A DNA stretch of 64,000 bases, taken from Escherichia coli. Lineage in GTDB: Bacteria > Pseudomonadota > Gammaproteobacteria > Enterobacterales > Enterobacteriaceae. Every line of letters begins with the position of its first letter. Position 1 is the stretch's first letter. The DNA is taken from the NCBI RefSeq assembly GCF_003018115.1, contig NZ_CP027457.1. One strand, 5' to 3'. A program made the translations under genes and the position numbers. Below, piece after piece: positions 43,578 through 62,002 of the stretch. The notes under the pieces were generated by a model. The model did no database searches, had not been told where the DNA came from, and saw nothing but the letters and a program-made list of their open reading frames with translations.

Positions 43578-43791
43578 CGCGCACCTCGTGGCTGATTATG
43601 GACGGCGTTATTGGCAAAGTGGAACAAGACTCACTCCCGGGTCAGCAAACTCGAAAAATTGACGCTCCCATTATTTGTGCTTTCGTTTTTTTCTATCCGC
43701 CAATAAACCCGTTTTTTTGTTGCTATTTAGCGCCTTTGTCTTATTGACTTACTGGTAGGCTTTGCTATCAGAAATTATCCAGGAGATGAAA
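43578..43791. promoter_or_regulatory. Divergent fliE / fliF class II flagellar promoter region
   Basis: Intergenic region between divergently oriented fliF and fliE. Assigned from established flagellar regulon architecture; no binding site was mapped by eye. Confidence 0.4.
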
Positions 43792-44106
43792 ATGTCAGCG
43801 ATACAGGGGATTGAAGGGGTTATCAGCCAGTTACAGGCTACGGCGATGAGTGCGCGTGCGCAGGAATCACTGCCGCAACCGACCATTAGTTTTGCCGGGC
43901 AGCTGCACGCCGCTCTCGATCGCATAAGCGATACACAAACAGCCGCCCGCACGCAGGCAGAAAAATTCACTCTCGGTGAACCCGGCGTGGCGTTAAACGA
44001 TGTGATGACCGATATGCAAAAAGCCTCAGTTTCTATGCAAATGGGGATTCAGGTGCGTAATAAGCTGGTGGCGGCGTATCAGGAAGTGATGAGCATGCAG
44101 GTGTAG
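43792..44106 (+). CDS. fliE: Flagellar hook-basal body protein FliE (104 aa)
   Basis: Sequence [29 protein letters not shown]...; start trimmed from the track ORF. Confidence 0.85.
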
Positions 44107-44439
44107 GTTTTGTAACCTGTTGTTGATTACATCCGATCTCACCGCGTGGGGCATGGATGGGGCAAATTCACTCATTTTCTGGTTTAAAATGGATACCTGA
44201 TCCTGAAAGTTTTCTGCCATCCACGATCTGTATACGCGATAACATGTTTTGTCTTCGCTTTGCTCATAGGAAGAGTGAACTCTTTTGTTAGCCTGGGGTT
44301 CCTTCTGATCATTATTGTTCCTGCCTTTATCTCTTGCCACGCCAGAGCCCCCTGGATACACATACACCAGGATGAAAACGGTGAGTTGTGTTCAAACTGT
44401 AGTACAATTCTCTCCAGTATGAACAGGAAAGAATATGCT

Positions 44440-44772
44440 ATGAACCCTTATATTTATCTTGGTGGCGCAATACTTGCAGAGGTCATTGGTACAACCTTAA
44501 TGAAGTTTTCAGAGGGGTTTACACGGTTATGGCCCTCTGTTGGCACAATTATTTGCTATTGTGCATCATTCTGGTTATTAGCTCAGACACTGGCTTATAT
44601 ACCTACAGGGATTGCTTATGCTATCTGGTCAGGAGTCGGTATCGTTCTGATTAGTTTGCTTTCCTGGGGATTTTTTGGTCAACGACTGGACCTGCCAGCC
44701 ATCATAGGCATGATGTTGATTTGTGCCGGTGTGTTAGTCATTAACTTGTTGTCACGAAGTGCACCGCATTAA
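44440..44772 (+). CDS. emrE: SMR-family multidrug efflux transporter (EmrE-like, 110 aa)
   Basis: Sequence MNPYIYLGGAILAEVIGTTLMKFSEGFTRLW... with the conserved membrane-embedded Glu (AEV); near-identical to my recollection of K-12 EmrE. Track ORF is over-extended upstream. Confidence 0.8.
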   Translation: MNPYIYLGGAILAEVIGTTLMKFSEGFTRLWPSVGTIICYCASFWLLAQTLAYIPTGIAYAIWSGVGIVLISLLSWGFFGQRLDLPAIIGMMLICAGVLVINLLSRSAPH

Positions 44773-44940
44773 AAAATAATCATCCTTGAGATAACAGGAA
44801 TCTGATTTGTGCATATTATGGCTAATGTTCGGGGCAACTTTATAATTATGATTGCATTTGCGCGATCATTGCGCCTTTTTGCATAATGAGATCAAGGCAC
44901 ATCAAATAAAATAACGATAGGTCACAACAAAGAGGTTTTT

Positions 44941-45492
44941 ATGAAAAAACTTATCGTTTCAAGTGTATTGGCATTCATAACATTTTCTGCGCAGGCCGCA
45001 GCATTTCAGGTCACTAGTAATGAAATAAAAACAGGAGAGCAACTTACAACGTCTCATGTATTTTCTGGATTTGGGTGTGAGGGGGGTAATACATCGCCCT
45101 CATTAACCTGGTCTGGTGCTCCAGAAGGCACCAAAAGCTTTGCCGTAACTGTGTATGATCCAGATGCGCCTACAGGCAGTGGATGGTGGCACTGGACTGT
45201 TGCTAATATTCCAGCAACGGTAACATATTTGCCCGCTGATGCAGGAAGACGTGATGGTACAAAACTTCCGACTGGTGCTGTCCAAGGCCGAAATGATTTT
45301 GGCTATGCGGGATTTGGTGGAGCATGTCCTCCCAAAGGAGATAAACCCCATCATTACCAGTTTAAAATATGGGCTCTAAAAACTGATAAGATTCCTGTGG
45401 ATTCTAATTCCAGCGGAGCGTTAGTTGGTTATATGCTTAATGCCAATAAAATTGCAACCGCTGAGATAACACCCGTTTATGAGGTAAAGTAG
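44941..45492 (+). CDS. Periplasmic PEBP/RKIP-family protein (YbcL-like, 183 aa)
   Basis: Signal peptide MKKLIVSSVLAFITFSAQA and PEBP core (DPDAP...HHY); resembles the DLP12-encoded YbcL. Confidence 0.75.
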   Translation: MKKLIVSSVLAFITFSAQAAAFQVTSNEIKTGEQLTTSHVFSGFGCEGGNTSPSLTWSGAPEGTKSFAVTVYDPDAPTGSGWWHWTVANIPATVTYLPADAGRRDGTKLPTGAVQGRNDFGYAGFGGACPPKGDKPHHYQFKIWALKTDKIPVDSNSSGALVGYMLNANKIATAEITPVYEVK

Positions 45493-45501
45493 GATAAGAG
45501 T

Positions 45502-46299
45502 ATGCTGGCAAAAGATAGGACTAACCTAAAGATTGAAGAAATACGGATGCATAAACATCATGAGATTCACAGGGTTAAGCCTCTTATGCCAGCTTTATGT
45601 CGTATCCGTCAGGGAAAAAAAGTTATCAATTGGGAGACGCATAGTCTAACTGTTGATAATAATCAGATAATATTATTTCCCTGTGGATATGAATTTTATA
45701 TTGCGAATTACCCAGAAGCAGGTCTTTATCTTGCAGAAATGCTTTATTATCCCATTGATCTAATTGAAAAGTTCCAAAATCTTTATGCGATAACCGATCA
45801 AATTCGTAACACGACAGGTTTCTGCTTACCTCAGAATCCCGAGTTAATATATTGTTGGGAGCAACTAAAAACATCTATTTCCCGAGGCTTCTCAACGCAA
45901 ATTCAGGAACACTTAGCAATGGGCGTTCTACTTTCATTAGGAGCACATCATGTTAATTGTTTACTTTTATCAGATAGTAAACAATCATTAATAAGTCGTT
46001 GTTATAACCTAATGCTATCCGAACCTGGAACAAAATGGACAGCAAACAAGGTAGCGAGATATCTCTACATTTCTGTTTCCACATTGCATCGCCGTCTGGC
46101 AAGCGAGGGAGTAAGTTTTCAAAGTATATTGGACGACGTGAGGTTAAATAATGCGTTGTCTGCTATACAAACGACAGTAAAACCCATCAGCGAGATTGCC
46201 AGAGAAAGTGGTTACAAGTGTCCTTCTCGTTTTACTGAAAGGTTCCATAATCGTTTTAAGATAACACCAAGAGAGCTAAGAAAAGCGTCCAGAGAGTAA
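45502..46299 (+). CDS. AraC/XylS-family transcriptional regulator (YbcM-like, 265 aa)
   Basis: C-terminal AraC-type HTH (...[30 protein letters not shown]); AGGA RBS 9 nt upstream; starts 10 bp after the PEBP gene stop (operon-like). Confidence 0.7.
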
Positions 46300-46800
46300 A
46301 AGTATTTTATGAAGGAGCAACAGCATCGATTTTTATTTTGGAAAATAAATACGGCATACTCAACCTATTGGAGCCTGAACAATCCGGTGACTTCTGCGCT
46401 AATCGGGGACGTTTATAAGCACATATAATTGATACTATCTTCCTCCATCACAATTTCAGAAATGCACGTGTGATTTTTTTGCATCCGGCGTTTGGACTAT
46501 GTGGAGTTCAAGAGTGGGAAAGTTACAAGAGGTTGAGGGGATAATTAAAGGGATGCTTATGACATTAGATATCCGGTTAGGTACGGATATCGTTGTTATT
46601 AAATCTAATTGATACGTTAATTGTTCACTGAGTATTATTAAAAATGGGGCGTTGAAACGCCCCAGAAAATAAAGGGTAATATATAACAGAAGGTTTATAT
46701 AGTCAGAAGCAAGATAGTGCTTCTAAGGAAAGTGGTTTGAGGGCGCCACTTATATGTTGGGGAGGCAAAGCCTCCCACAACATATCTTTGAGTAATCAGA

Positions 46801-47883
46801 TTAGAACTGGTAAACCAATCCTACAGCAACGATATCATCGGTAGCAACGCCAGATGCTTTCGTGAAATCGCTCTTATCAATCAGGTTGATTTTGTAATCA
46901 ACAAAAGTGGACATATTTTTGTTGAAGTAATAGGTTGCACCTACATCAATATATTCAACCAGGTCCTGATCACCCCACGCACCCAAGTCTTTTCCTTTAG
47001 ATTGCAGGTAAGCAACGGACGGACGCAGACCGAAGTCGAACTGATATTGTGCAACTACTTCAAAGTTTTGTGCTTTGTTGGCAATATGGTTATTACCAAA
47101 AACAGTCATGTTCTGGGTTTCAGAATAGGTGGTAGCCAGATAGATGTTGTTCGCATCATATTTCAGACCAGCTGCCCATACTTCAGCATTTTGACCAGAT
47201 GCATTCAGGCTGTTGTTACCGTAGATAACCTGATCATTAGTGCGGTCAGATTTAGCATAGGTTGCACCTACACCGAATCCTTCATACTCATAAGTAGTGG
47301 AGAAACCGAAACCATCACCGTTAGCTTCAGTTACGTCAGTGCGGTCATTTTTACCCTGATACTGAGCAGCAAAGTTCAGACCATCAACCAGACCAAAGAA
47401 GTCGTTGTTACGATAAGTTGCAACACCTGTGGTGCGACCAGTCATGAACACATCTGTTTGGGTCCAGGTATCGCCACCGAATTCTGGCAGAACGTCGGTC
47501 CATGCACCGATATCGTATGCTACACCGTAGTTACGGCCATAATCGATGGAGCCGTAGTCACCGAATTTCAGGCCAGCGAAGGCAAGACGGGTTTTATCTT
47601 TGGAAGAACCTTGAGATTCAGCACGGTTGCCTTTGAATTCATATTCCCACTGACCGAAACCAGTCAGTTGATCGTTGATTTGAGTTTCGCCTTTGAAGCC
47701 CAGACGAACATAAGTTGTGTCGCCATCATCTGCATCGTTAGAAGAGAAGTAGTGCTTAGCATTAACTTTTCCGTACAGATCCAGCTTGTTACTGTCTTTA
47801 TTGTAAATCTCTGCTGCCTGAGCAGACATCGCCATCAGTACTGATGCAGCTACAGCAGAAATTGCCACTGTTAATTTTTTCAT
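46801..47883 (-). CDS. General bacterial porin, OmpC/OmpF family, NmpC/Lc-like (360 aa)
   Basis: Signal peptide [23 protein letters not shown], motif [17 protein letters not shown]-terminal ...[10 protein letters not shown]-terminus matches my recollection of NmpC-type porins. Confidence 0.8.
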
Positions 47884-48394
47884 CGTGAGCCCTTTTATTT
47901 GAACTATTATTTAAAAATGATGTCACTGCACCACAAATATTCATCTAATCAATGAGATTATTTCAAGATGTAAGTTTTAGTTTCTCATTTAAATTGTGAA
48001 GTAGATCCCTATTTTTATCTGAACTGTTTCTATTGCACACAATGCATGACTATTTTGTGAACGAATATAAATTTGGTAGTCAAATTATATTAAAGGTTGT
48101 TATTTATGATTGACTCATAATTTATTTTTTTAATTTAAATAGCCTGAAAATAACTATAGAAATTATTTGTATGATATTTGTTTAGATTTATTAATGTAAT
48201 TTAGGTGGTTTTATTTAATACGCAATATAGCGCCGCTTGATATTAGTTCTATTTTTTTGCGTAAGATAGATGAGACAAAACTGAGACGCATAATGGTTTG
48301 CAAGGCTCTAATACTTTGATGTTGAGGATGTGATGGGGCATGTACGGGCATAGTACAATGATGTCCATGCAGGTGTAGATAATCTCCAGGCTTA

Positions 48395-49063
48395 TCAAAC
48401 AGGTTGAATTAACGCTGCGCCCTGGTTTTTAACATTACCCACCGCGCGCGATACCGGGTGCCAGGAGAACTGGTTTGCTGGAACACAGCCACTGGCCGCG
48501 ATTTCTGAGGCTTCTTTACCGCTAATCTCTTGCCGCATCCATTCCCGCGCAGCTTCTGGCGACAGTACCAGTGGGCGGCGGTCATGAATATCTACCAGAC
48601 CTTGATCTGCCGCAGCAGTGACGATCAAAAATCCTTCGGCTTCGTCACCACGCTCAAATGGTGTGCTACCTATCGCGGCCATAAAAATAGGTTGTCCATC
48701 AGCACGATAGATAAAAAAAGGCTGTTTTTTGTCGCCTTCTTTTTTCCACTCAAACCAGCCATCGGCAAAACAGATTGCCCGACCATGTTGCCAGAGCGGT
48801 TTAAACATGCGACTGGTTGCGGCAGTTTCTACGCGGGCGTTAATCAGCGGCGGTTTATCCCACCATCCCGGAGCATATCCCCAGAAAACCGGATCCAGAT
48901 GAAGGTGTTCATCACGTTCACTGAGCAGAAGAACTTTGGTTCCCGGCGCGACGTTGTATCTGCTAATGGGTTCGGGATCGTAGGGAATATCGCGTTCAAT
49001 ATCTTCCGCGAGAAGCGCAAGGTAATCTTCACGCGTTTGGGATTGGGCAAAGCGTCCACACAT
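48395..49063 (-). CDS. yedK: SOS-response-associated peptidase (abasic-site processing protein), 222 aa
   Basis: N-terminal MCGRF (catalytic Cys2) hallmark of the SRAP family. Confidence 0.85.
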   Translation of the reverse strand: MCGRFAQSQTREDYLALLAEDIERDIPYDPEPISRYNVAPGTKVLLLSERDEHLHLDPVFWGYAPGWWDKPPLINARVETAATSRMFKPLWQHGRAICFADGWFEWKKEGDKKQPFFIYRADGQPIFMAAIGSTPFERGDEAEGFLIVTAAADQGLVDIHDRRPLVLSPEAAREWMRQEISGKEASEIAASGCVPANQFSWHPVSRAVGNVKNQGAALIQPV

Positions 49064-49169
49064 AGAAACCTCCTGAGATCATACTGAAAAGAATAGGAGA
49101 GGGGGCGGGTAAAATCTATGTGTCAGAGGCAACGATGTTCCCGCTGTGGGCCACAGCGGGAATGAGGGA

Positions 49170-49403
49170 TTACTTCTGAATTAAATAACGAATGGTCGGC
49201 CCGTCTTGCTGAATATCCAGCACCGTATAGCCGTGATTACGCGCATCCAGTGGAATATTATTGATCGACTGCGGACAGTCGCTCACCACTTCCAGGATCT
49301 CACCTTTTTTTAATTGCGGCATCGCCTCAAGAGTTGCGACTGCCGGATAAGGGCAGGGTTCACCCACCATATCAAGGCGGTAATCAGGAACGATATTTTT
49401 CAT
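49170..49403 (-). CDS. yedF: TusA-like sulfurtransferase-fold protein (77 aa)
   Basis: CPxP motif (EPCPYP) typical of TusA-like proteins; overlaps the yedE stop. Confidence 0.85.
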   Translation of the reverse strand: MKNIVPDYRLDMVGEPCPYPAVATLEAMPQLKKGEILEVVSDCPQSINNIPLDARNHGYTVLDIQQDGPTIRYLIQK

Positions 49404-50605
49404 GCGATCTCCTTAGCAGTCTGCGGTGCCGCACGGCGGAAGAAGCGTTTTTCCCAGCCGATAATCAACATCAGCGCAGTAAACAACAGCAAATATGTCA
49501 CCAGCAGGCCACCCATCGGGCCAAAGGTTTTCAGCAGGTTTATTTTGTCCCAGTCGGTGGCCAGCGCTGGAGCGAAATCATCCCAGTAATACGCCAGAAT
49601 CGTTGAGCCGATCACATTGCCCAGACCGACCCACCAGTAGTGCACCTGGCCTTCTACCGCGCGGTACATCCAGCCGGTTTCGCAGCCGCCAGCCAGCACG
49701 ATGCCAAAACCAAACAGTAAACCACCAATTACCGCGTTTGGTCCCGCCCACATGATTTTGGGTTCAACGCCTAACTGTACGTAACTGAAGATCCCGATGG
49801 CACTCACCGCCATACCGATAATGATTGCTTTCGCCATATGAGTACGTCCGGTGATCCACATATCGCGGAACGCCGAAGTAAAGCAGATTTGCGCACGTTC
49901 AATCAGTAAACCAAAGCCGACGCCAAACAGCATTGCCAGCCCCAGTTTGGGTTGGTTCATCGCCGTGAGCAGCGCCCAGCCCAGCATGCCGAAAAAGACC
50001 AGCATCCCGAGACGAAAACGACGTCGCGCCTGATCCGGTTTTTGCGTCAGCGGTGAGGCGGCAGAAACTTTCTGCATTTTCACGGGAATACGGAAGATGG
50101 GCAGCAGGGTAAAGCGCGCGCCAAACCATGAACCAATGGCAGTGGCGATGGCAAAGAACCAGGCATGCAGCGAGAACTGAGGAATACCGGTAAAGAACGC
50201 CGCCAGGTTACAGCCCATTGCCAGACGCGCGCCAAAACCGGCGATAATGCCGCCAATGATGGCCTGCATAATGCGGATACGGCTGCGCGGCATTCGCAGT
50301 TTGACATTGTTGGCCCACAGCGCTGCGGCAAAGCAGCCGCCAAACATACCGAGGATCATCATCCCGTCGATGCGGGTTAATGGCGATCCTTCCAGATGGA
50401 TAATTTTAAAGTAACCCCACTCTTCAGCATGGACGCCGAACAGTTGCAGGAGCTGGCCGCCCCAACGGGTAAATTCACCCGTGACAGCCCAAAAGGTGCC
50501 AGTAATGCCAAAATAGTAAGTGGAGAGAATACCCGCCGCGATGACCGCGGGGATGGGCGCCCAGAATTTAATCAACCAGGCGTGTTTGAATTGCTGCCAT
50601 GACAT
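49400..50605 (-). CDS. yedE: YedE/YeeE-family inner-membrane transporter (401 aa)
   Basis: Polytopic membrane protein with duplicated YeeE/YedE domain; paired with yedF. Confidence 0.85.
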   Translation of the reverse strand: MSWQQFKHAWLIKFWAPIPAVIAAGILSTYYFGITGTFWAVTGEFTRWGGQLLQLFGVHAEEWGYFKIIHLEGSPLTRIDGMMILGMFGGCFAAALWANNVKLRMPRSRIRIMQAIIGGIIAGFGARLAMGCNLAAFFTGIPQFSLHAWFFAIATAIGSWFGARFTLLPIFRIPVKMQKVSAASPLTQKPDQARRRFRLGMLVFFGMLGWALLTAMNQPKLGLAMLFGVGFGLLIERAQICFTSAFRDMWITGRTHMAKAIIIGMAVSAIGIFSYVQLGVEPKIMWAGPNAVIGGLLFGFGIVLAGGCETGWMYRAVEGQVHYWWVGLGNVIGSTILAYYWDDFAPALATDWDKINLLKTFGPMGGLLVTYLLLFTALMLIIGWEKRFFRRAAPQTAKEIA

Positions 50606-50791
50606 GAATGTAGCCTCTGAACTCAGAAGGTTTGAAACAAGAGTCGCGAATCATACACCATGCAAATTTATTTTCGGGGTAATAATTCACAAAAATAATA
50701 GTTAGATCAAATTTCTCTCTGAACCTGGAAAGGCTGGCGACATCAGGGCTTTAATGCCACAATCCTCTTTTCTTCTCATGCAGGACGAATG

Positions 50792-51205
50792 ATGAAAAAA
50801 CTCGCAATTGCAGGCGCGCTCATGTTGCTGGCGGGCTGTGCCGAAGTCGAAAACTATAACAATGTCGTGAAAACCCCCGCGCCGGACTGGCTGGCGGGCT
50901 ACTGGCAGACCAAAGGGCCGCAACGTGCGCTGGTCAGCCCGGAAGCGATAGGCAGCCTGATTGTCACTAAAGAGGGCGATACCCTGGATTGCCGTCAGTG
51001 GCAGCGGGTGATTGCTGTGCCGGGCAAGTTGACATTGATGTCTGATGATCTCACTAACGTTACCGTAAAACGTGAGCTGTACGAGGTTGAGCGTGACGGT
51101 AACACCATTGAGTACGATGGTATGACGATGGAGCGTGTGGATCGCCCGACAGCAGAGTGTGCCGCCGCGCTGGATAAAGCGCCGTTACCGACGCCACTGC
51201 CGTAA
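50792..51205 (+). CDS. yedD: Lipoprotein YedD (~137 aa)
   Basis: Lipobox LLAGC near the N-terminus; start could be 50789 or 50792. Confidence 0.75.
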   Translation: MKKLAIAGALMLLAGCAEVENYNNVVKTPAPDWLAGYWQTKGPQRALVSPEAIGSLIVTKEGDTLDCRQWQRVIAVPGKLTLMSDDLTNVTVKRELYEVERDGNTIEYDGMTMERVDRPTAECAAALDKAPLPTPLP

Positions 51206-51238
51206 TGAAATCTCCCCGGCTTGCTGCCGGGGATGAAT

Positions 51239-52726
51239 TTAAATCACCTCTTCGATAACCCACACGCTAACGCTGCCGCCGTTGCAAAAGAAGGTCGCTT
51301 CGCCGTTTTCGTCGGTTACTACACTCTCTTGCCGGTTCCCAAGAAAATCACGCCAGGTTTTATTGCCGTAATTCTCTCCCAGATGAATGGTTTTTTCGCC
51401 ATCATCCCCGTTCGACATGACCACCACGCAGCCGGGATATTCGTCAGTGCCACTGCGGCTAAAGGCAATGCAGTTCGGATGGTCGAAAAATAACGTCTGT
51501 ACACCGTGGGCGAAACGCTGACGGGCGAGAATTAACTCATCAAGCTGTTCGATTATTGGCATATCTATCGGATAGGTTTGCCCGTCACCACCGACATCTT
51601 CGTAATGCGCACCGTAGAGGTCCGGATAGAATACCGAAGGAACGCCATTTTCCCGCAACAAAATTAAGGCGTACGCCAGCGGTTTAAACCACGGTTCGAC
51701 CGGCGCTTCGAGGGCTTGCAACGGTTGGGTGTCATGGTTGGCAACGAGGGTTACGGCGTGAAAAGGATCGGCTTCCACCAGCGTCCCAGTGAAAATCTGC
51801 GTCATGTCGTAGTCGCGTCCCATGCGCGATGCTTCATGGAATTTCATCTGCAGCGGTGCATCGAACAGCATGGTTTTGCCTTCCACCTGATCAATATACG
51901 TTTGCAGTTTATCAACTTCATGCGACCAGTACTCCGCCACAATAAACAGCGGCTTTGGCGCAACTTCCTGTACGTGTTCGATCCACTCTTTATAAAACCA
52001 GGCTGGAATATGTTTGACCGCATCAAGACGAAAACCGTCGCATTGCGTTTGTTCCATCACCCAGCGCGCCCAGTATTTAATCTCTTCCGTCACGGCATGA
52101 TTGCGAAAATCGATATTCTCGCCCATCAGATAATCGAAATTACCTAATTCATCATCAACCTGATCGTTCCAGCCTTCGCCGGTGTAGTCGTTAACAATTT
52201 TAAATATGCCATCTTCATCAGGGTTTTCGATATGGTCGATACCGCTAAAACATTTGAAATCCCAGATAAACTGTGAGTATTGCCCGGCACGGGCGGGGAA
52301 GGTGTAACGCGTCCAGCCTTCGCACTCAATGATTTCTTCATCAATTTGCGTACGGTCGTCAGCATTTACACGCTGCACGCGAATAGCTTCTTTTTCATCC
52401 GCGCCCATTTTGTGGTTGACTACCACGTCCAACAGCACCGCAATGTCATTACGTTTCAGGGCGTCAATGGCGGCCAGCAGTTGTACTTTATCGCCATATT
52501 TAGTAGGGATGCTGCCTTTCTGATCAAACTCACCTAAATCAAATAAATCATAGGAGTCGTAGCCGACCGAATACCCGCCCGATGCGCCTTTATAGGCGGG
52601 CGGCAACCAGACCATATTGATACCAATATCATTAAAACCGTCGGCGCGCTCGGCCAGTTCAGGCCAGAGCTTACCGCCTTCCGGGTAATACCAGTGAAAA
52701 CATTGTAACAGCGTGGGATTACGCAT
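51239..52726 (-). CDS. amyA: Cytoplasmic alpha-amylase (495 aa)
   Basis: GH13 motifs ([15 protein letters not shown]) and no signal peptide. Confidence 0.9.
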
Positions 52727-52803
52727 TCTTCGACTCCATTCAAGGGGAACATTAGAAGCGTAGCCGTAATCGGATTATTCGCGAGCCATCGACTCATTCA
52801 GAT

Positions 52804-53169
52804 TCAAAAGAGGTTATCCTGCGGAGCCAGCACAAAGCCGCCCTGATCGCCATAGGCACTTAACACCGATTTTTGCACCGATGACTGACCGACCAGTTTC
52901 GCCAGTTCATCCATCCGAATCTGTAATAACTGCTTTACCTTGCTTTCGTTGTCGAGAATCAGGCGCAGCATCGGGCGGAGCTGCTCCTGCATCGTGGTGG
53001 ACGGCTCAACCTCTTCAGTCAGGTGTGCAATTTCCTGCACCGCATTCACATACGCCATTTCGCTGGCGATGAGTTCGTCCCACTGTTCTTCTGTTGCCAG
53101 GCGTAACATGAGCTGGCTTTTTTCGACGAGTTGTTGCCAGGCGAAATACAAATGCGGTGCATTGTTCAT
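52804..53169 (-). CDS. fliT: Flagellar chaperone for FliD / anti-FlhDC factor (121 aa)
   Basis: Last gene of fliDST; sequence [22 protein letters not shown]... Confidence 0.85.
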
Positions 53170-53579
53170 CAGACTGGGTCCTGAATCAAAGAAGGGGAGA
53201 GTAAAGACTCTTTCCAGGCATCGGCAATATTACGCATTAATGCTTCCACCTCTTCGACTGCGGAGACATCGTTGCGTAAATTGGCTTGCAGCAAGCGCCT
53301 GACCATATAGCTATAAAGAGCAATCAAGTTTTGGGTTAATTCGTCTTTGCTATCTTCATCAAGACTCACCCGCAGTCCGTTCTCAATGATGTTGATCGCT
53401 TTTGACAAAGAGACGCCTTTGCCTTGCTGATTGTTGTCCTGCATAAACAGGCGCGCTCTAACCAGTGCACTCAGCACTCCATCAAATAGCATGGTGACCA
53501 GCTGCTGCTGGCTGGCGCTCATTACGGCGCTTTCGACGCCAATTTGTGCATAGGCCTGGGTGCCTTTTGCCGCGTACAT
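53169..53579 (-). CDS. fliS: Flagellin-specific chaperone FliS (136 aa)
   Basis: Full-length match to FliS; overlaps the fliT start. Confidence 0.9.
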
Positions 53580-53603
53580 GACCTGTCTCCCGATGAATAT
53601 TGA

Positions 53604-55010
53604 TTACTTGGAATTACTGTTGTTTTCGAACTGCTGCGTTAAGTAGCTGCTTGTGCTGTTTAACGAGGTCATTAAAACGTCCAGTTGGGTAAATTGTTCT
53701 TTGTAGCGCGCGACCTGCGCATCAATGCGATCGCTGGCGGCGTTGTAGTCTTTAGTTAATTTATTCAGGGTCTTACTAACGCCATCGGTAGCGGCTTTAA
53801 TAATGCCCGTTGTCGAAAGCCAACTGGTCAGGTTGCTGCCGATGGTGGTTGTGATGCCGGTTTTTTTACCATCGCCAACAATCAATGCACCTACGCCGCT
53901 GGCATCTTTTTTCAGTGCAGCGGTGAGTTTGTCGGCATCCAGTTCCAGTTTGCCATCGCTGGGATCGGTCGTGATACCAATCTGCGCCAACGTTTTATAG
54001 TTGGAAGAACTAACGGTATTACTCAGCATCGACTTCAACTGCGTCTGAATCGTCCGCAGCGTGGAGTCGCCGAGCAGTGCGCCATTGCTAGAGCTCTGGC
54101 TATCAGCTCCCGCATCTACGGCGGTGTATTTGGTCAGGCTGCTGAAGGTATCTATTAGCGAGTTATAGGCATTCACCCAGTCTTTAATCGCCGTTTGCGC
54201 TTTGGAGGTGTCCTGAGTGATGGTCAGCGTCTGGTTGCCCGTGGTGACATCGTTCAGGTTCAGGGTGATGTTTTCCAGCGCGTCGCTGATAGTGTTGCTG
54301 CTGTTCTCGATGGCGACGTTGTTGACTGTCAGCTGCGCATTCTGGGCGGCGACCGAGACCTCCATGCCGTTGCTGCTGGCACTGGCGTCATAGCCCATAA
54401 AACTTTGTAGCGCATCATCACCGCTGACCGAGAGTGTCATCGCATTATCAAGGCCGGTGTCATTTGATGTGACTGACAGACGATATTCACCGTTACCCAC
54501 GTTAATGATGCTCGCACTTACGCCCGCTTTTGCGTTGTTGATGGCATCACGGATCCCGCTTAACGACGAGTTAGCCGCGCTGATATCAATGGTAATCGGA
54601 TCTTTGTCGCCGCCTTGTTGAATGGTGAGTTTACTGTCGCTGGTGGCGATCGCCGTTTTCGTATCATCTCTGGTGGTGCGCGTGGTCAGGGTTTGCGCCT
54701 GCGCCAGATGGGTGACGCTGATGGTGTATTTCCCGGCGATGGCGTTACCCGCGGTGGTGGCACTGAACGCGGTGGTGCTGCTGGTAGTGCTGGTGGCGGA
54801 AAAAAGATCGGCTTTAGACAATGCAGTATTGGCGGTCTGGAAAGTCGTCAACGCGCTTTTCAGCGTACCGTAGGCGCTAAGTTTAGCGGTAAACGACGAT
54901 TGCTGATTTGAAATAGGGGTTAGCGTCGCTTTTTGCGCGGCGGTGAGGCTATCAAGGATTGAACTTAAATCCAGGCCTGACCCGACTCCCAGCGATGAAA
55001 TACTTGCCAT
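53604..55010 (-). CDS. fliD: Flagellar filament cap protein FliD (468 aa)
   Basis: N-terminus MASISSLGVGSGLDLSSILDSLTAAQK... Confidence 0.9.
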   Translation of the reverse strand: MASISSLGVGSGLDLSSILDSLTAAQKATLTPISNQQSSFTAKLSAYGTLKSALTTFQTANTALSKADLFSATSTTSSTTAFSATTAGNAIAGKYTISVTHLAQAQTLTTRTTRDDTKTAIATSDSKLTIQQGGDKDPITIDISAANSSLSGIRDAINNAKAGVSASIINVGNGEYRLSVTSNDTGLDNAMTLSVSGDDALQSFMGYDASASSNGMEVSVAAQNAQLTVNNVAIENSSNTISDALENITLNLNDVTTGNQTLTITQDTSKAQTAIKDWVNAYNSLIDTFSSLTKYTAVDAGADSQSSSNGALLGDSTLRTIQTQLKSMLSNTVSSSNYKTLAQIGITTDPSDGKLELDADKLTAALKKDASGVGALIVGDGKKTGITTTIGSNLTSWLSTTGIIKAATDGVSKTLNKLTKDYNAASDRIDAQVARYKEQFTQLDVLMTSLNSTSSYLTQQFENNSNSK

Positions 55011-55053
55011 GCGATTTCCTTTTATCTTTCGACACGTAAAACGAATACCGGGG

Positions 55054-55080
55054 TTATCGGCCTGAATTGCGCAAAGTTTA
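55054..55080 (-). promoter_or_regulatory. Sigma-28 (FliA) class III promoter of fliDST
   Basis: Minus-strand sequence TAAACTTTGCGCAATTCAGGCCGATAA matches the sigma-28 consensus TAAAGTTT-N11-GCCGATAA, about 45 bp upstream of the fliD start. Confidence 0.6.
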
Positions 55081-55172
55081 CGTTTAATTGTTTTTTTTAA
55101 TAGCGGGAATAAGGGGCAGAGAAAAGAGTATTTCGGCGACTAACAAAAAATGGTTGTTTGTGAAAAAAATTC

Positions 55173-55199
55173 TAAAGGTTGTTTTACGACAGACGATAA
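55173..55199 (+). promoter_or_regulatory. Sigma-28 (FliA) class III promoter of fliC
   Basis: TAAAGGTTGTTTTACGACAGACGATAA, a near match to the sigma-28 consensus, about 75 bp upstream of the fliC ATG. Confidence 0.55.
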
Positions 55200-55275
55200 C
55201 AGGGTTGACGGCGATTGAGCCGACGGGTGGAAACCCAATACGTAATCAACGACTTGCAATATAGGATAACGAATC

Positions 55276-56955
55276 ATGGCACAAGTCATTAATACCAACA
55301 GCCTCTCGCTGATCACTCAAAATAATATCAACAAGAACCAGTCTGCGCTGTCGAGTTCTATCGAGCGTCTGTCTTCTGGCTTGCGTATCAACAGCGCGAA
55401 GGATGACGCCGCGGGTCAGGCGATTGCTAACCGTTTTACTTCTAACATTAAAGGCCTGACTCAGGCTGCACGTAACGCCAACGACGGTATTTCTGTTGCG
55501 CAGACCACCGAAGGCGCGCTGTCCGAAATCAACAACAACTTACAGCGTATCCGTGAACTGACGGTTCAGGCTTCTACCGGGACTAACTCTGATTCGGATC
55601 TGGACTCCATTCAGGACGAAATCAAATCCCGTCTGGACGAAATTGACCGCGTATCCGGTCAAACCCAGTTCAACGGTGTGAACGTACTGGCGAAAGACGG
55701 TTCGATGAAAATTCAGGTTGGTGCGAATGACGGCCAGACTATCACTATTGATCTGAAGAAAATTGACTCTGATACTCTGGGTTTGAGTGGATTTAATGTG
55801 AATGGCAAAGGGGCTGTGGCTAACGCAAAAGCGACCGAAGCAGATTTAACGGGGGCTGGTTTCTCTCAAGGAGCGGTGGATACAAACGGAAATAGTACTT
55901 GGACAAAATCAACCACCACCAATTACTCAGCTGCAACAACTGCTGACTTGTTATCGACCATTAAGGATGGCTCTACTGTTACATATGCAGGGACAGACAC
56001 CGGATTGGGGGTCGCAGCAGCAGGAAATTATACTTATGATGCGAACAGTAAATCTTATTCCTTCAATGCCAATGGTCTGACGGGCGCAAATACCGCAACT
56101 GCACTCAAAGGTTACTTGGGGACAGGTGCTAACACCGCTAAAATTTCTATCGGTGGTACAGAGCAGGAAGTGAATATTGCCAAAGATGGCACTATTACAG
56201 ATACGAATGGTGATGCGCTCTATCTGGATATTACCGGCAACCTGACTAAGAACTATGCGGGTTCACCACCTGCAGCAACGCTGGATAACGTATTAGCTTC
56301 CGCAACTGTAAATGCCACTATCAAGTTTGATAGCGGTATGACGGTTGATTATACTGCAGGTACTGGCGCGAATATTACAGGTGCATCCATTTCTGCAGAT
56401 GACATGGCCGCAAAACTGAGCGGAAAGGCGTACACTGTTGCCAATGGTGCTGAGTCTTATGACGTTGCTGCAGTTACGGGGGCTGTAACAACTACAGCAG
56501 GTAATTCACCTGTGTATGCCGATGCAGACGGTAAATTAACGACGAGTGCCAGTAATACGGTTACTCAGACTTATCACGAGTTTGCTAATGGTAACATTTA
56601 TGATGACAAAGGCTCGTCACTGTATAAAGCTGCAGATGGCTCTCTGACTTCTGAAGCTAAAGGGAAATCTGAAGCAACCGCCGATCCCCTGAAAGCTCTG
56701 GACGAAGCGATCAGCTCCATCGACAAATTCCGCTCCTCCCTCGGTGCGGTGCAGAACCGTCTGGATTCCGCAGTCACCAACCTGAACAACACCACTACCA
56801 ACCTGTCCGAAGCGCAGTCCCGTATTCAGGACGCCGACTATGCGACCGAAGTGTCCAATATGTCGAAAGCGCAGATCATTCAGCAGGCCGGTAACTCCGT
56901 GCTGGCAAAAGCTAACCAGGTACCGCAGCAGGTTCTGTCTCTGCTGCAGGGTTAA
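55276..56955 (+). CDS. fliC: Flagellin (H antigen), 559 aa, with a long central variable domain
   Basis: Conserved N-terminus ([54 protein letters not shown]) and C-terminus (...[12 protein letters not shown]); the Thr/Gly/Ala-rich middle is allele-specific. Confidence 0.9.
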
Positions 56956-56994
56956 TCGTCGTAAACTGATTAACTGAGACTGACGGCAACGCCA

Positions 56995-57100
<106 letters not shown>

Positions 57101-57128
57101 ATAAAGCGCAATTTGTCAGCAACGTGCT

Positions 57129-57153
57129 TCCCCGCCACCGGCGGGGTTTTTTC
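57129..57153 (+). terminator. Rho-independent terminator downstream of fliC
   Basis: CCCCGCCACCGGCGGGG hairpin followed by TTTTTT. Confidence 0.6.
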
Positions 57154-57274
57154 TGCCTGGAATTTACCTGTAACCCCCAAATAACCCCTCATTTCACCCA
57201 CTAATCGTCCGATTAAAAACCCTGCAGAAACGGATAATCATGCCGATAACTCATATAACGCAGGGCTGTTTATC

Positions 57275-57994
57275 GTGAATTCACTCTATACCGCTGAAGG
57301 TGTAATGGATAAACACTCGCTGTGGCAGCGTTATGTCCCGCTGGTGCGTCACGAAGCATTGCGCCTGCAGGTTCGACTGCCCGCGAGCGTGGAACTTGAC
57401 GATCTGCTACAGGCGGGCGGCATTGGGTTACTTAATGCCGTCGAACGCTATGACGCCCTACAAGGAACGGCATTTACAACTTACGCAGTGCAGCGTATCC
57501 GTGGCGCTATGCTGGATGAACTTCGCAGCCGTGACTGGGTGCCGCGCAGCGTGCGTCGCAACGCGCGTGAAGTGGCACAGGCAATAGGGCAACTGGAGCA
57601 GGAACTTGGCCGCAACGCCACGGAAACTGAGGTAGCGGAACGTTTAGGGATAGATATTGCCGATTATCGCCAAATGTTGCTCGACACCAATAACAGCCAG
57701 CTCTTCTCCTACGATGAGTGGCGCGAAGAGCACGGCGATAGCATCGAACTGGTTACTGATGATCATCAGCGAGAAAACCCGCTACAACAACTGCTGGACA
57801 GTAATTTGCGCCAGCGGGTGATGGAAGCCATCGAAACGTTGCCGGAGCGCGAAAAACTGGTATTAACCCTCTATTACCAGGAAGAGCTGAATCTCAAAGA
57901 GATTGGTGCAGTGCTGGAGGTCGGGGAATCGCGGGTCAGTCAGTTACACAGCCAGGCTATTAAACGGTTACGCACTAAACTGGGTAAGTTATAA
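57275..57994 (+). CDS. fliA: Flagellar sigma factor sigma-28 (239 aa)
   Basis: GTG start; sigma-70-family regions 2 to 4; N-terminus MNSLYTAEGVMDKHSLWQRYVPLV... Confidence 0.9.
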   Translation: MNSLYTAEGVMDKHSLWQRYVPLVRHEALRLQVRLPASVELDDLLQAGGIGLLNAVERYDALQGTAFTTYAVQRIRGAMLDELRSRDWVPRSVRRNAREVAQAIGQLEQELGRNATETEVAERLGIDIADYRQMLLDTNNSQLFSYDEWREEHGDSIELVTDDHQRENPLQQLLDSNLRQRVMEAIETLPEREKLVLTLYYQEELNLKEIGAVLEVGESRVSQLHSQAIKRLRTKLGKL

Positions 57995-58039
57995 CGTCAG
58001 TAAATGCCGCACTTTAACTTTGACTACCAGGAGTTCTTA

Positions 58040-58591
58040 ATGATGGTGCAGCACCTGAAAAGACGGCCATTAAGCCGCTATCTTAAAGACTTTAAACACA
58101 GCCAGACCCATTGCGCGCATTGCCGTAAATTACTCGATCGCATTACCTTAGTTCGCGACGGCAAAATAGTGAATAAAATCGAGATTTCCCGCCTGGACAC
58201 GCTGCTTGATGAAAATGGCTGGCAAACGGAACAAAAATCATGGGCGGCATTGTGCCGATTTTGCGGTGATTTACACTGCAAAACGCAGAGTGATTTTTTC
58301 GATATTATCGGCTTTAAGCAATTTCTTTTTGAGCAAACTGAAATGAGCCCTGGTACGGTGCGTGAATATGTCGTTCGTTTGCGCCGTTTGGGGAATCATC
58401 TACACGAGCAAAATATTTCCCTCGATCAGCTGCAGGACGGTTTCCTTGATGAAATCCTCGCCCCGTGGCTGCCTACCACCAGCACCAACAATTACCGCAT
58501 TGCGTTACGGAAGTATCAACACTATCAGCGTCAAACGTGTACCGGACTTGTGCAGAAATCCTCCAGCCAGCCTGCTTCTGATATATATTAA
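58040..58591 (+). CDS. fliZ: FliZ regulator (183 aa)
   Basis: N-terminus MMVQHLKRRPLSRYLKDFKHSQTHCAHC... after trimming the track extension; immediately downstream of fliA. Confidence 0.85.
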   Translation: MMVQHLKRRPLSRYLKDFKHSQTHCAHCRKLLDRITLVRDGKIVNKIEISRLDTLLDENGWQTEQKSWAALCRFCGDLHCKTQSDFFDIIGFKQFLFEQTEMSPGTVREYVVRLRRLGNHLHEQNISLDQLQDGFLDEILAPWLPTTSTNNYRIALRKYQHYQRQTCTGLVQKSSSQPASDIY

Positions 58592-58678
58592 ATAAGAATA
58601 AGATGTAGCGGAGTTGTTTTTGTGTTTACAAACAATGGCTCTACACTGCAAACAGACATAACAACATTCGGGGTGAAT

Positions 58679-60570
<1,892 letters not shown>

Positions 60571-60584
60571 CTCCGGAAACGCTC

Positions 60585-61253
60585 ATGCAAGAAAGTATAC
60601 AACTGGTTATTGATTCCTTGCCGTTCCTGCTGAAAGGGGCTGGGTATACGCTGCAACTCAGTATCGGCGGCATGTTTTTTGGCTTATTACTCGGGTTTAT
60701 TCTCGCGCTGATGCGCCTGTCGCCAATCTGGCCCGTGCGCTGGCTGGCGCGTTTTTATATCTCTATTTTTCGTGGTACGCCGCTCATCGCACAACTGTTT
60801 ATGATCTATTACGGCCTGCCGCAGTTTGGCATCGAATTAGATCCCATTCCGTCAGCAATGATTGGTCTGTCGCTGAACACTGCCGCCTATGCTGCCGAAA
60901 CGCTGCGCGCCGCCATTTCTTCTATTGATAAAGGTCAGTGGGAAGCAGCTGCCAGTATTGGTATGACGCCATGGCAGACCATGCGTCGCGCGATTTTGCC
61001 ACAGGCGGCGCGGGTGGCGTTGCCGCCGCTGTCGAACAGCTTTATCAGCCTGGTAAAAGATACGTCGCTGGCCGCGACAATCCAGGTGCCGGAGCTGTTC
61101 CGTCAAGCGCAGTTGATTACCTCGCGCACGCTGGAGGTGTTCACCATGTACCTGGCGGCTTCGCTCATCTACTGGATCATGGCGACAGTATTATCGACGT
61201 TGCAGAACCATTTTGAGAATCAACTTAATCGCCAGGAGAGAGAACCAAAATGA
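60585..61253 (+). CDS. tcyL: L-cystine ABC transporter permease (222 aa)
   Basis: Polar amino acid ABC permease with EAA loop; matches YecS/TcyL. Confidence 0.85.
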   Translation: MQESIQLVIDSLPFLLKGAGYTLQLSIGGMFFGLLLGFILALMRLSPIWPVRWLARFYISIFRGTPLIAQLFMIYYGLPQFGIELDPIPSAMIGLSLNTAAYAAETLRAAISSIDKGQWEAAASIGMTPWQTMRRAILPQAARVALPPLSNSFISLVKDTSLAATIQVPELFRQAQLITSRTLEVFTMYLAASLIYWIMATVLSTLQNHFENQLNRQEREPK

Positions 61254-62002
61254 GTGCCATTGAAGTTAAGAACCTGGTGAAAAAATTTCACGGTCAGACG
61301 GTGCTGCACGGTATCGACCTTGAGGTAAAGCCTGGCGAAGTGGTGGCAATTATCGGTCCGAGTGGTTCCGGCAAAACCACGTTGCTACGTAGCATAAATC
61401 TGCTGGAACAACCGGAAGCGGGAACGATCACCGTTGGCGATATCACTATTGATACTGCACGTTCATTAAGTCAGCAAAAATCGCTGATTCGCCAGTTGCG
61501 TCAGCACGTCGGGTTTGTCTTCCAGAACTTTAATTTGTTTCCGCATCGTACGGTGCTGGAGAACATTATTGAAGGGCCGGTGATCGTCAAAGGCGAACCG
61601 AAAGAAGAGGCCACGGCGCGCGCTCGCGAGCTACTGGCAAAAGTTGGGCTGGCCGGTAAAGAAACCAGCTATCCACGTCGTTTGTCTGGCGGTCAACAGC
61701 AGCGTGTTGCGATTGCGCGTGCGCTGGCAATGCGTCCTGAGGTGATTTTGTTTGACGAGCCAACGTCAGCACTGGATCCAGAGCTGGTGGGCGAAGTCCT
61801 GAACACCATCCGTCAGCTGGCGCAGGAAAAGCGCACGATGGTGATTGTGACACACGAAATGAGCTTTGCCCGGGATGTTGCGGACCGGGCGATCTTTATG
61901 GACCAGGGGCGGATAGTCGAGCAGGGGGCCGCAAAAGCGTTATTTGCCGATCCCAAGCAGCCTCGCACCCGCCAGTTCCTCGAGAAGTTTCTGCTGCAAT
62001 AA
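61250..62002 (+). CDS. tcyN: L-cystine ABC transporter ATP-binding protein (250 aa)
   Basis: Walker A GPSGSGKTT, ABC signature LSGGQQQR, Walker B ILFDEPTSALD. Confidence 0.85.
   Translation: MSAIEVKNLVKKFHGQTVLHGIDLEVKPGEVVAIIGPSGSGKTTLLRSINLLEQPEAGTITVGDITIDTARSLSQQKSLIRQLRQHVGFVFQNFNLFPHRTVLENIIEGPVIVKGEPKEEATARARELLAKVGLAGKETSYPRRLSGGQQQRVAIARALAMRPEVILFDEPTSALDPELVGEVLNTIRQLAQEKRTMVIVTHEMSFARDVADRAIFMDQGRIVEQGAAKALFADPKQPRTRQFLEKFLLQ

Follow-up and report, generated by a model that had tools for sequence, protein, structure and literature searches.

A probable lambdoid prophage remnant carrying emrE, ybcL, ybcM and a porin gene at the 3′ end of fliE in Escherichia coli

Four genes that in Escherichia coli K-12 are carried among phage genes by the defective lambdoid prophage DLP12 were found next to each other between fliE and yedK in the 64-kb stretch of E. 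coli DNA analysed here (the window), which raises the question of how they came to lie at this site. A sequence-only reading had correctly named their DLP12 counterparts and had proposed either a phage-derived cluster of morons retained as an islet or an ancestral locus from which phage took the genes, adding that they could act as one envelope-permeability unit. Based on the anatomy of the interval, its att sites, its collinearity with phages, its distribution in the population and purifying selection on its genes, all of which were observed, we consider it very probable that 44107–48378 holds the worn-down remains of a mosaic lambdoid prophage, now cryptic and presumably non-excisable, and that the four genes are its surviving cargo.

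Layout of the interval and its attachment site

The four genes were confirmed at the positions given by that reading. The interval and its borders are:

43792–44106, + strand: fliE, a conserved flagellar gene and the left flank
44087–44106, + strand: attL core, the last fliE codons and stop, TGATGAGCATGCAGGTGTAG, the longest direct repeat of the region
44107–48378: probable decayed lambdoid prophage, bracketed by a 20-nt direct repeat
44107–44242, no strand: P′ arm of the att site, with a GGGGCA pair at +61/+72 from the core start, overlapping the integrase 3′ end
48299–48358, no strand: P-arm remnant of the att site, GCAAGGCT...GGGGCATGTACGGGCA
48359–48378, + strand: attR core, TGATGTCCATGCAGGTGTAG, 20/20 identical to phage attP and to the 3′ end of fliE in other strains
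48395–49063, − strand: yedK, the right flank

The AT-rich surroundings described earlier were found, with a GC minimum of 0.28–0.30 at 47800–48400, and the GC profile that had been proposed as a check showed 0.35–0.46 for the islet versus 0.52–0.58 for the flanks. The porin gene had been described as divergent and was shown to be convergent (tail to tail) with ybcM. Direct repeats at the boundaries, likewise proposed as a check, were found at 44087–44106 and 48359–48378. The two core copies are identical at 18 of 20 positions within the strain, a 13-mer of the core occurs twice in the window versus 0 expected, and a chance repeat was rejected as an explanation. Homology to every other arrangement class restarts at 48379, the base following the attR copy.

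The identical 20-mer together with the next 16 nt was found immediately 3′ of the 434-aa integrase gene in phage IdasGreatGrand. Paired GGGGCA motifs are present in both arms of the phage attP and at the corresponding positions of the window. In the P′ arm the phage pair lies at +72/+83, and the segment 44107–44242 was matched in 5,308 of 5,426 E. coli genomes. In the P arm the phage pair lies at −136/−125, and the remnant is now at −24 of the core after a deletion of ~110 bp.

The 3′ end of fliE is an attachment site that has been used repeatedly by different phages: in strain UTAK-1 fliE is immediately followed by an intact 38.6-kb P22-like prophage that extends from int to the tailspike gene and has the 20-mer at both ends, and FLI21 contains another, different decayed prophage at this site. 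A virgin attB (fliE stop joined to 48379) was absent among the best matches from the 5,426 genomes, and those obtained with a synthetic fliE-end/yedK-end junction were all two-piece with the integrase relic still inside; the state before integration is therefore inferred rather than observed. A literature search gave nothing relevant on the fliE attachment site or on the islet, and the phage names gave no papers.

Integrase relic, phage gene debris and deletion joints

Besides the att sites, the following remains of phage DNA were detected:

44125–44259, − strand: integrase pseudogene, C-terminal fragment (Int aa 387–431; 80% identity to the IdasGreatGrand integrase by tblastn)
44238–44348, − strand: integrase pseudogene, internal fragment in another frame (Int aa ~239–277; 62% identity to CobraSix over 39 aa)
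44364–44439, + strand: phage ren–emrE intergenic DNA, where the first DLP12-homologous block starts
44775–44786, no strand: joint without ylcJ and ybcK, which take up ~2.1 kb in DLP12 and PhiR34_1
46421–46474, + strand: degraded relic of ylcH, a small phage gene (YlcH aa 3–20, 67% identity by tblastn)
46514–46612, + strand: scar of a deletion that joined the GTG start codon of ybcN to the final 32 codons of quuD (Q antiterminator)

The internal integrase fragment falls in an ORF at 44184–44363, and ~109 codons are deleted between the two fragments. The relic adjoins attL and reads toward it, in the position and orientation seen in IdasGreatGrand. It belongs to a different family from the DLP12 integrase IntD, a fragment of which gave no tblastn match within the islet.

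Three collinear blocks of the interval are 89–92% identical to DLP12-type prophages and to the genome of the complete phage PhiR34_1. Their edges coincide with the ren end and the ybcN start codon, and one lies within quuD. The order of the element is thus a truncated int, the end of ren, emrE, ybcLM, the ylcH relic (which sits within the second block), the ybcN start codon, the 3′ part of quuD, the porin gene and the P arm. Left of emrE, the part from Int aa ~239 through the end of ren is deleted. The scar at 46514–46612 translates as VGKLQEVEGIIKGMLMTLDIRLGTDIVVIKSN* and marks the loss of ybcN, ninE, ybcO, rusA, ylcG and the 5′ part of quuD. The claim that the islet has no phage context did not hold: there are an integrase pseudogene, a ylcH relic and the 3′ end of the Q antiterminator gene, as well as the two att arms and the att core repeats. 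The reading as a phage-derived moron cluster was supported by the att repeats, the phage fragments and the collinearity with DLP12 and PhiR34_1.

The joint left of emrE was identical in three islet variants (L001, L003 and L004), and the ybcN/quuD joint matched at 46/46, 46/46 and 44/46 positions in the same variants. High-identity matches across the ylcH/quuD joint numbered 2,656, near the 2,622 genomes with the left junction. Joints that are the same or nearly so in three variants, together with the similar counts, point to single ancestral deletions.

These joints bear on two other origins. If fliE–yedK were the ancestral chromosomal home from which lambdoid phages such as DLP12 took the four genes, the genes would be expected as they are, contiguous here and scattered in the phage, and the dS of 0.16–0.38 between the islet and DLP12-type copies does indicate an old relationship. 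However, phage genes are interrupted at the deletion joints, and the ren end, the ylcH relic and the ybcN start codon with 32 quuD codons are left at the block edges; besides, att repeats enclose the interval from end to end and an integrase relic is present in it, about half of the E. coli genomes do not have it, and its GC content is far under that of the host flanks. In species-representative genomes the only exact match to the ylcH/quuD joint was an E. coli-like contig in a Lachnospiraceae MAG, in a scan whose exact-match pattern misses diverged copies and is uninformative on other Escherichia species. We regard an ancestral locus as extremely improbable. Equally improbable is a recent intragenomic copy of the resident DLP12, moved from argU to fliE by recombination or transposition: gene content and order are those of DLP12, but a DNA identity of only 89–92% and the dS given above are far too diverged for a recent copy, the integrase relic is of a non-IntD family with its own att site, and the joints are common to three islet variants from different strains.

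Cargo genes and their distribution

The cargo and its predicted control regions are:

44440–44772, + strand: emrE, SMR multidrug efflux transporter, intact
44840–44873, no strand: putative YbcM operator and ybcLM promoter region, 68–101 nt upstream of ybcL
44941–45492, + strand: ybcL, periplasmic PEBP/RKIP-family protein with signal peptide
45502–46299, + strand: ybcM, AraC-family regulator
46637–46800, − strand: porin 3′ UTR with an intrinsic terminator at its end (stem 46645–46664), candidate for an IpeX-like sRNA
46801–47883, − strand: NmpC/Lc/OmpD-type general porin gene, intact
47884–48221, − strand: AT-rich porin upstream and promoter region, homologous to phage porin–holin intergenic DNA

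All four proteins gave full-length matches to PHROG families, and dN/dS compared to the phage copies was 0.01–0.13. The close homology to DLP12 that had been stated was found for each of them. EmrE (NCBIfam NF042984, 240.5 bits versus a cut-off of 226; phrog_1395, category ‘moron’) showed 98.2% amino acid identity to K-12 EmrE with a dN/dS of 0.02, and the essential Glu14 is present in the translation MNPYIYLGGAILAE. YbcL (PRK09818, 400.8 bits versus a cut-off of 277; phrog_5139) showed 95.6% identity to its K-12 counterpart (dN/dS 0.09) and starts with MKKLIVSSVLAFITFSAQAAA, judged by eye to be a signal peptide. YbcM, which starts 9 nt past the ybcL stop, showed 91.3% identity to K-12 YbcM over its full length (dN/dS 0.13); phrog_6899 matches residues 1–265, i.e., the full length, whereas the NCBIfam matches were to AraC-family C-terminal HTH regions only (HilD, HilC, AraC and others; aa ~153–264). 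The porin (360 aa, zero internal stops; phrog_410; OmpC-subfamily NF007841, 520.8 bits versus a cut-off of 484) showed 99.2% amino acid identity to the PhiR34_1 porin (dN/dS 0.02) and 91.5% to the K-12 NmpC fragment.

The porin stop codon is followed after ~164 nt by the terminator, and this 3′ UTR is nearly invariant compared to the K-12 DLP12 nmpC 3′ region and is predicted to fold with an MFE of −56.7 kcal/mol (z −8.7). The matching DLP12 region encodes IpeX, a porin-repressing sRNA (PMC12197685, PMC5069750). An Rfam scan of 43700–49100 at E ≤ 1 gave zero matches, so the IpeX assignment is based on alignment and literature. On the other side of the porin gene, homology to DLP12 and PhiR34_1 stops at 48221, and 48222–48298 had no identified match to any sequence. 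A consensus promoter scan gave 8 sites versus 13.0 expected, fewer than in shuffled sequence, and therefore no promoter is claimed from it.

In K-12, YbcM is a DNA-binding regulator with 12 sites, and deletion of ybcM gave 8-fold higher H2O2 sensitivity (PMC8464067). It was found to bind lrhA, with a reported switch from motility to biofilm. Its dominant ChIP-exo site is its own operon, the peak at the ybcLM upstream region having an S/N of 357, and no site was named at emrE or nmpC, in an experiment that covered the DLP12 copy under paraquat only, with the K-12 nmpC disrupted by IS5 (PMC8464067 and its supplement). The corresponding region is conserved in an alignment (A2); its position in the window depends on an inferred coordinate conversion between K-12 assembly versions.

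The survey of 5,426 complete E. coli genomes showed that the arrangement is not in all E. coli. The integrase relic is kept in ~98% of them, emrE-ybcL-ybcM in 2,622 (48%) and the full islet with porin in 454 (8.4%), so that the porin is absent in ~83% of the genomes retaining emrE-ybcLM; these losses of the porin/IpeX region have at least three different truncation points. The interval is polymorphic in E. coli, where decay of the remnant continues.

The suggestion that the four genes are regulated together as one envelope-permeability module, with emrE and the porin gene under YbcM control in addition to ybcL, and that selection has retained them as a unit, is consistent with four products that are all envelope-acting or regulatory, with the low dN/dS of all four and with YbcM being a real regulator whose loss affects H2O2 sensitivity. 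It appears very unlikely, however, since deletions brought the genes together, emrE-ybcLM is accompanied by the porin and IpeX region in a minority of genomes, with several points of loss, emrE has an internal stop in variant L003, and no YbcM site was named at emrE or nmpC in K-12. Slightly less improbable, but still unlikely, is that emrE-ybcL-ybcM alone has become a domesticated module under selection in about half of E. coli, with YbcM acting on the adjacent flagellar regulon and porin/IpeX as a dispensable accessory that tunes outer-membrane permeability between lineages.

Proposed history and comparison with known systems

According to the preferred reading as a prophage remnant, the progenitor phage would have combined an IdasGreatGrand/CobraSix-type tyrosine integrase targeting the last 20 nt of fliE with a DLP12/PhiR34_1-type nin–Q region carrying the cargo genes. 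Such a phage brings its own copy of the fliE-end sequence, so fliE would remain intact after integration. No prophage combining this type of integrase with the emrE-ybcLM-porin cargo was found, and the progenitor is thus a reconstruction. A few large deletions would then have removed most of int and all that followed up to and including ren, the genes from ybcN into the 5′ part of quuD, and the stretch from the lysis genes to the P arm; ylcJ–ybcK may have been deleted too, or may never have been present, having been inserted in the DLP12 lineage instead. The four genes are adjacent because of these deletions, not as a designed unit. The survivors would be lysogenic-conversion genes that presumably are self-expressed: a monocistronic emrE, a ybcL-ybcM operon that is probably autoregulated here as well, and a porin gene whose 3′ UTR may act as an IpeX-type sRNA. 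Judged from its homologues in DLP12 and PA-2, this pair would lead to a phage porin being made while host OmpC and OmpF are repressed. The remnant has neither an intact int nor xis and has lost ~110 bp of the P arm, and is therefore predicted to be unable to excise.

This element is an ordinary kind of bacterial genome feature and leaves the current understanding of such elements unchanged. It shows the decay of a prophage down to its cargo genes in unusual detail, with the phage origin visible base by base, and it explains why K-12 has an orphan integrase pseudogene (intG) beside fliE and why many pathogenic lineages (ST131, NRG 857C, ATCC 25922) have emrE/ybcL/ybcM in a second copy, as well as the porins annotated as ‘ompC’ at the fliE locus, which are of the phage Lc/NmpC type. 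The presence, deletion or IS association of the porin and IpeX provides a natural allelic series, which bears on the effect of a phage porin and sRNA on OmpC/OmpF levels and on antibiotic or phage susceptibility.

The K-12 fliE–yedK interval had been described as holding different genes, which was borne out (PMC5122947). This K-12-type interval (intG pseudogene, yedM, yedN, yedL) occupies the same site and shares 136 nt of the P′ arm and integrase 3′ end (~97% identity) as well as the right boundary, equivalent to 48379, but it has a wholly different cargo and no attR copy of the 20-mer. Its integrase gene is broken a few codons away from the islet breakpoint, which suggests that the two truncations arose independently.

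IdasGreatGrand (PP925829), Enterobacter phage CobraSix and the UTAK-1 prophage have an integrase of the same family as the islet relic. In IdasGreatGrand and the UTAK-1 prophage the att core is identical to the 3′ end of fliE and the arm motifs match as well, CobraSix has a diverged core with unchanged arm-motif spacing, and in UTAK-1 int adjoins fliE in the position and orientation of the relic. These three are otherwise unrelated to the islet, and none carries emrE, ybcLM or the porin gene. Conversely, PhiR34_1 (PV340559), PhiR68_2 and PhiR70_1, complete genomes of 44.6–49.7 kb (PhiR34_1, 44.6 kb), carry all four islet genes and an integrase unlike the relic. PhiR34_1 covers 90% of the islet with 90.8% identity in three collinear pieces; phages of this type contain ybcK and nin genes between the cargo genes, unlike the islet.

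DLP12 (qsr′) is, like the islet, a defective lambdoid remnant, with the same cargo order (ren, emrE, ybcL, ybcM, ylcH, quuD and, on the opposite strand, nmpC), 89–92% DNA identity and 91–98% protein identity. It was integrated at the tRNA-Arg gene argU by IntD, whereas the islet lies at the fliE 3′ end with a 434-aa integrase type as in IdasGreatGrand. In contrast to DLP12, the islet contains neither ylcJ–ybcK, the nin region, lysis genes nor any structural gene, and its porin gene is intact, while nmpC in K-12 is split by IS5. The porin module, which we take to be linked to the Lc porin of phage PA-2 (a lysogenic-conversion porin swap), has the arrangement of the PA-2 Lc/DLP12 nmpC–IpeX modules, in which the porin gene lies between Q and the lysis genes and runs antisense to the late operon. 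It ends in a structured 3′ region of ~165 nt that is almost identical in sequence to that of DLP12, but it lies in a remnant without Q, lysis genes or a functional phage.

Attachment sites and integrase relic in the fliE–yedK interval

The four-gene islet between fliE and yedK, with attL and attR at its ends, is the remnant of a cryptic prophage that was cut down to lysogenic-conversion cargo. ORF calls confirmed the four genes at the positions given by the sequence-only reading, except that the porin, described there as divergent, was found to be convergent with ybcM.

Features of the interval
43792–44106, +, fliE (ORF)
44125–44259, −, integrase fragment, aa 387–431, 80% identity
44238–44348, −, integrase fragment, aa ~239–277, in a different frame from the other fragment
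44440–44772, +, emrE (ORF; NCBIfam EmrE score above cut-off)
44941–45492, +, ybcL (ORF; NCBIfam YbcL score above cut-off)
45502–46299, +, ybcM (ORF, 9 nt past ybcL; AraC-type HTH matches only in NCBIfam)
46801–47883, −, porin (ORF; NCBIfam OmpC-subfamily score above cut-off)
48395–49063, −, yedK (ORF)

All four islet proteins matched PHROG families over their full length. The windowed GC content dropped to 0.35–0.46 inside the islet compared to 0.52–0.58 in the flanks, and to 0.28–0.30 at 47800–48400.

The search for boundary repeats was also positive: the longest direct repeat in 43900–48600 was a 20-mer present at 44087–44106 (final codons plus stop codon of fliE) and again at 48359–48378, and its 13-mer core was found in exactly two copies in the 64-kb window (0 expected). 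The right copy agrees at 20/20 positions with the 3′ end of fliE in other strains, and homology to every other arrangement class starts again at 48379, the first base past it. In the free phage IdasGreatGrand (PP925829), the 20-mer and the 16 nt after it (GTTTTGTAACCTGTTG) recur without a change directly 3′ of a gene for a 434-aa tyrosine integrase, which belongs to the same family as the integrase of Enterobacter phage CobraSix. The two out-of-frame fragments of an IdasGreatGrand-type integrase in the window have the corresponding position and orientation, and account for the DNA from fliE to the first DLP12-homologous block. Paired GGGGCA motifs flank the core of the phage attP at −136/−125 and +72/+83; the pair is kept in the P′ arm of the window at +61/+72, and a P-arm remnant at 48299–48352 was moved to −24 by a deletion of ~110 bp. 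Excision of the remnant is predicted not to occur. A virgin attB, defined as fliE...CATGCAGGTGTAG directly joined to ATAATCTCCAGG, was not present among the best hits from 5,426 complete E. coli genomes.

Relation to lambdoid phages and deletion scars

The proposed link to DLP12, the cryptic lambdoid prophage of E. coli K-12, held at 91.3–98.2% protein identity (EmrE 98.2%, YbcL 95.6%, YbcM 91.3%, and NmpC 91.5% over the 341 aa that precede the IS5 insertion), and the islet porin showed 99.2% identity to that of phage PhiR34_1. With dN/dS of 0.01–0.13 and dS of 0.16–0.38 against the phage and DLP12 copies, the islet genes are long-diverged alleles under purifying selection and not as a recent copy. 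Alignment to a DLP12-type prophage (L002) gave three collinear blocks.

Collinear blocks and DNA identity to L002
44364–44774, end of ren and emrE, 92%
44786–46516, ybcL, ybcM and ylcH, 89%
46516–48221, last 99 nt of quuD, porin and 338 nt upstream, 92%

The same three-piece match (90.8% identity) was found with PhiR34_1 (PV340559), a complete lambdoid phage of 44.6 kb with the gene order int...cI-cro-cII-O-P-ren-emrE-ybcK-ybcL-ybcM-ybcN-ninE-ybcO-rusA-ylcG-Q-(porin)-S-R-Rz. Neither the phage collection nor DLP12 gave a match to the 77 AT-rich nt at 48222–48298, which separate the region upstream of the porin from the P-arm remnant.

Phage genes are cut at the block edges: a degraded YlcH relic lies at 46421–46474, and at 46514–46612 the GTG start codon of ybcN runs straight into the final 32 codons of QuuD (product VGKLQEVEGIIKGMLMTLDIRLGTDIVVIKSN*). 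The joints were identical or nearly so across the three islet variants compared, and the ylcH/quuD joint was spanned by 2,656 high-identity matches, close to the 2,622 genomes having the left junction; therefore, each deletion probably happened only once. Att repeats, integrase relic, cut phage genes and collinearity with DLP12 and PhiR34_1 support the phage-derived origin previously suggested. The alternative of an ancestral locus that supplied the genes to the phage is incorrect, as is the claimed lack of phage context, since integrase fragments, the YlcH relic, the quuD fragment and att sites are all present in the interval.

Distribution and probable exchange among E. coli lineages

Occurrence in 5,426 complete E. 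coli genomes
Integrase relic/P′ arm (match to the first ~136 nt past fliE): 5,308 genomes
Left junction into islet (emrE-ybcLM type): 2,622 genomes (48%)
Whole islet including porin: 454–455 genomes (8.4%)
Short, nearly empty interval: 784 genomes

The synteny comparison thus agrees with an islet rather than core genome. ATCC 25922 and NRG 857C are examples of strains having the whole islet. Loss of the porin and its 3′ region has taken at least three forms, with the truncation at 46607, 46610 or 46620; one variant (L003) carries an internal deletion of 46611–47842 as well as an IS200/IS605 element inserted at the stop codon of yedK, and in another (L004, ST131) an IS-associated deletion reaches into yedK. 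Upkeep of emrE is not uniform: a stop codon interrupts it in one genome of the islet type (L003 1741–2073), and in one DLP12-type prophage it is frameshifted (L002 6077–6410).

The DNA of the window is that of an ordinary E. coli. Downstream of the islet, the flank (49100–62000) was 99.6% identical to O169:H41 strains that contain a K-12-type interval with an integrase fragment and a DUF5503 pseudogene, whereas the best match of the islet showed only 98.5% identity. An O169:H41-like flank beside a different interval suggests that the interval has been exchanged between lineages, seemingly by recombination. Besides, a 5,169-bp contig labeled "MAG: Lachnospiraceae bacterium" (SFGN01000137.1) was 98.2% identical to the window over the whole islet and yedK and 96% over the fliE end, almost certainly because an E. 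coli contig was misbinned.

Retained functions and other occupants of the site

The emrE gene is intact, including the essential Glu14. The ybcL upstream region is conserved compared to K-12, in which ybcL-ybcM form an operon. fliE is 1.4 kb away from the islet copy of ybcM, possibly by coincidence given the att site. LrhA is a regulator of the flagellar master operon. ChIP-exo in K-12 detected 12 YbcM sites, of which the dominant one in the data reported (S/N 357), upstream of ybcL, indicates autoregulation, and further sites were recorded at ucpA and lrhA (S/N 24); the supplementary files list none at emrE or nmpC (PMC8464067). YbcM lowers motility gene expression according to a meeting report (PMC9966839), and a suppressive effect on neutrophil migration has been reported for YbcL of uropathogenic strains (cited in PMC8793217). 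The idea of a single envelope-permeability unit is not supported, because the genes were brought together by deletions, their losses are independent of one another, and neither emrE nor the porin belongs to the known YbcM regulon.

The porin 3′ UTR (46637–46800, −) closes with an intrinsic terminator, is almost invariant compared to K-12 DLP12 and is strongly structured (MFE −56.7 kcal/mol, z −8.7). It is a candidate ~165-nt sRNA of the type of IpeX, which represses OmpC/OmpF, assigned by homology only because no Rfam model matched it. Among sigma-70-like sequences in the islet, the best one (46609–46638, +; TTGATA, 18-nt spacer, TATTAT; 10/12) overlaps the quuD-fragment stop codon and runs just past it, where the lambdoid late promoter pR′ is expected; transcription from it would run antisense into the IpeX-like region and the porin.

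Elements of this kind are already well known; searches of the accessible literature turned up no account of the remnant itself or of fliE as an attachment site. The site is used repeatedly. In E. coli UTAK-1, an intact P22-like prophage of 38.6 kb (int and xis to tailspike) directly follows fliE with the 20-mer at both ends (L010 805–824 and 39530–39549), and an older integrase fragment, an LRR gene and yedK lie past it in a tandem arrangement. The serine codon of the fliE tail is TCC at attL, as in the phage attP, and AGC at attR, and the last codons of fliE are thus rewritten synonymously by integration. The decayed prophage of E. coli FLI21 (L014 761–13500) is a different one: int, which is frameshifted, is followed by xis, exo and bet, then IS5 and, adjoining yedK, a GtrA/glycosyltransferase cassette for gtr-type O-antigen modification, so that cargo outlasted phage as in the window. 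In Salmonella, the yedF–fliE interval holds yet another gene, SL1896 (PMC5122947). The K-12-type interval contains an integrase fragment, DUF5503/yedM and yedL; its first 136 nt after fliE are ~97% identical to the window, and its right boundary is the same.
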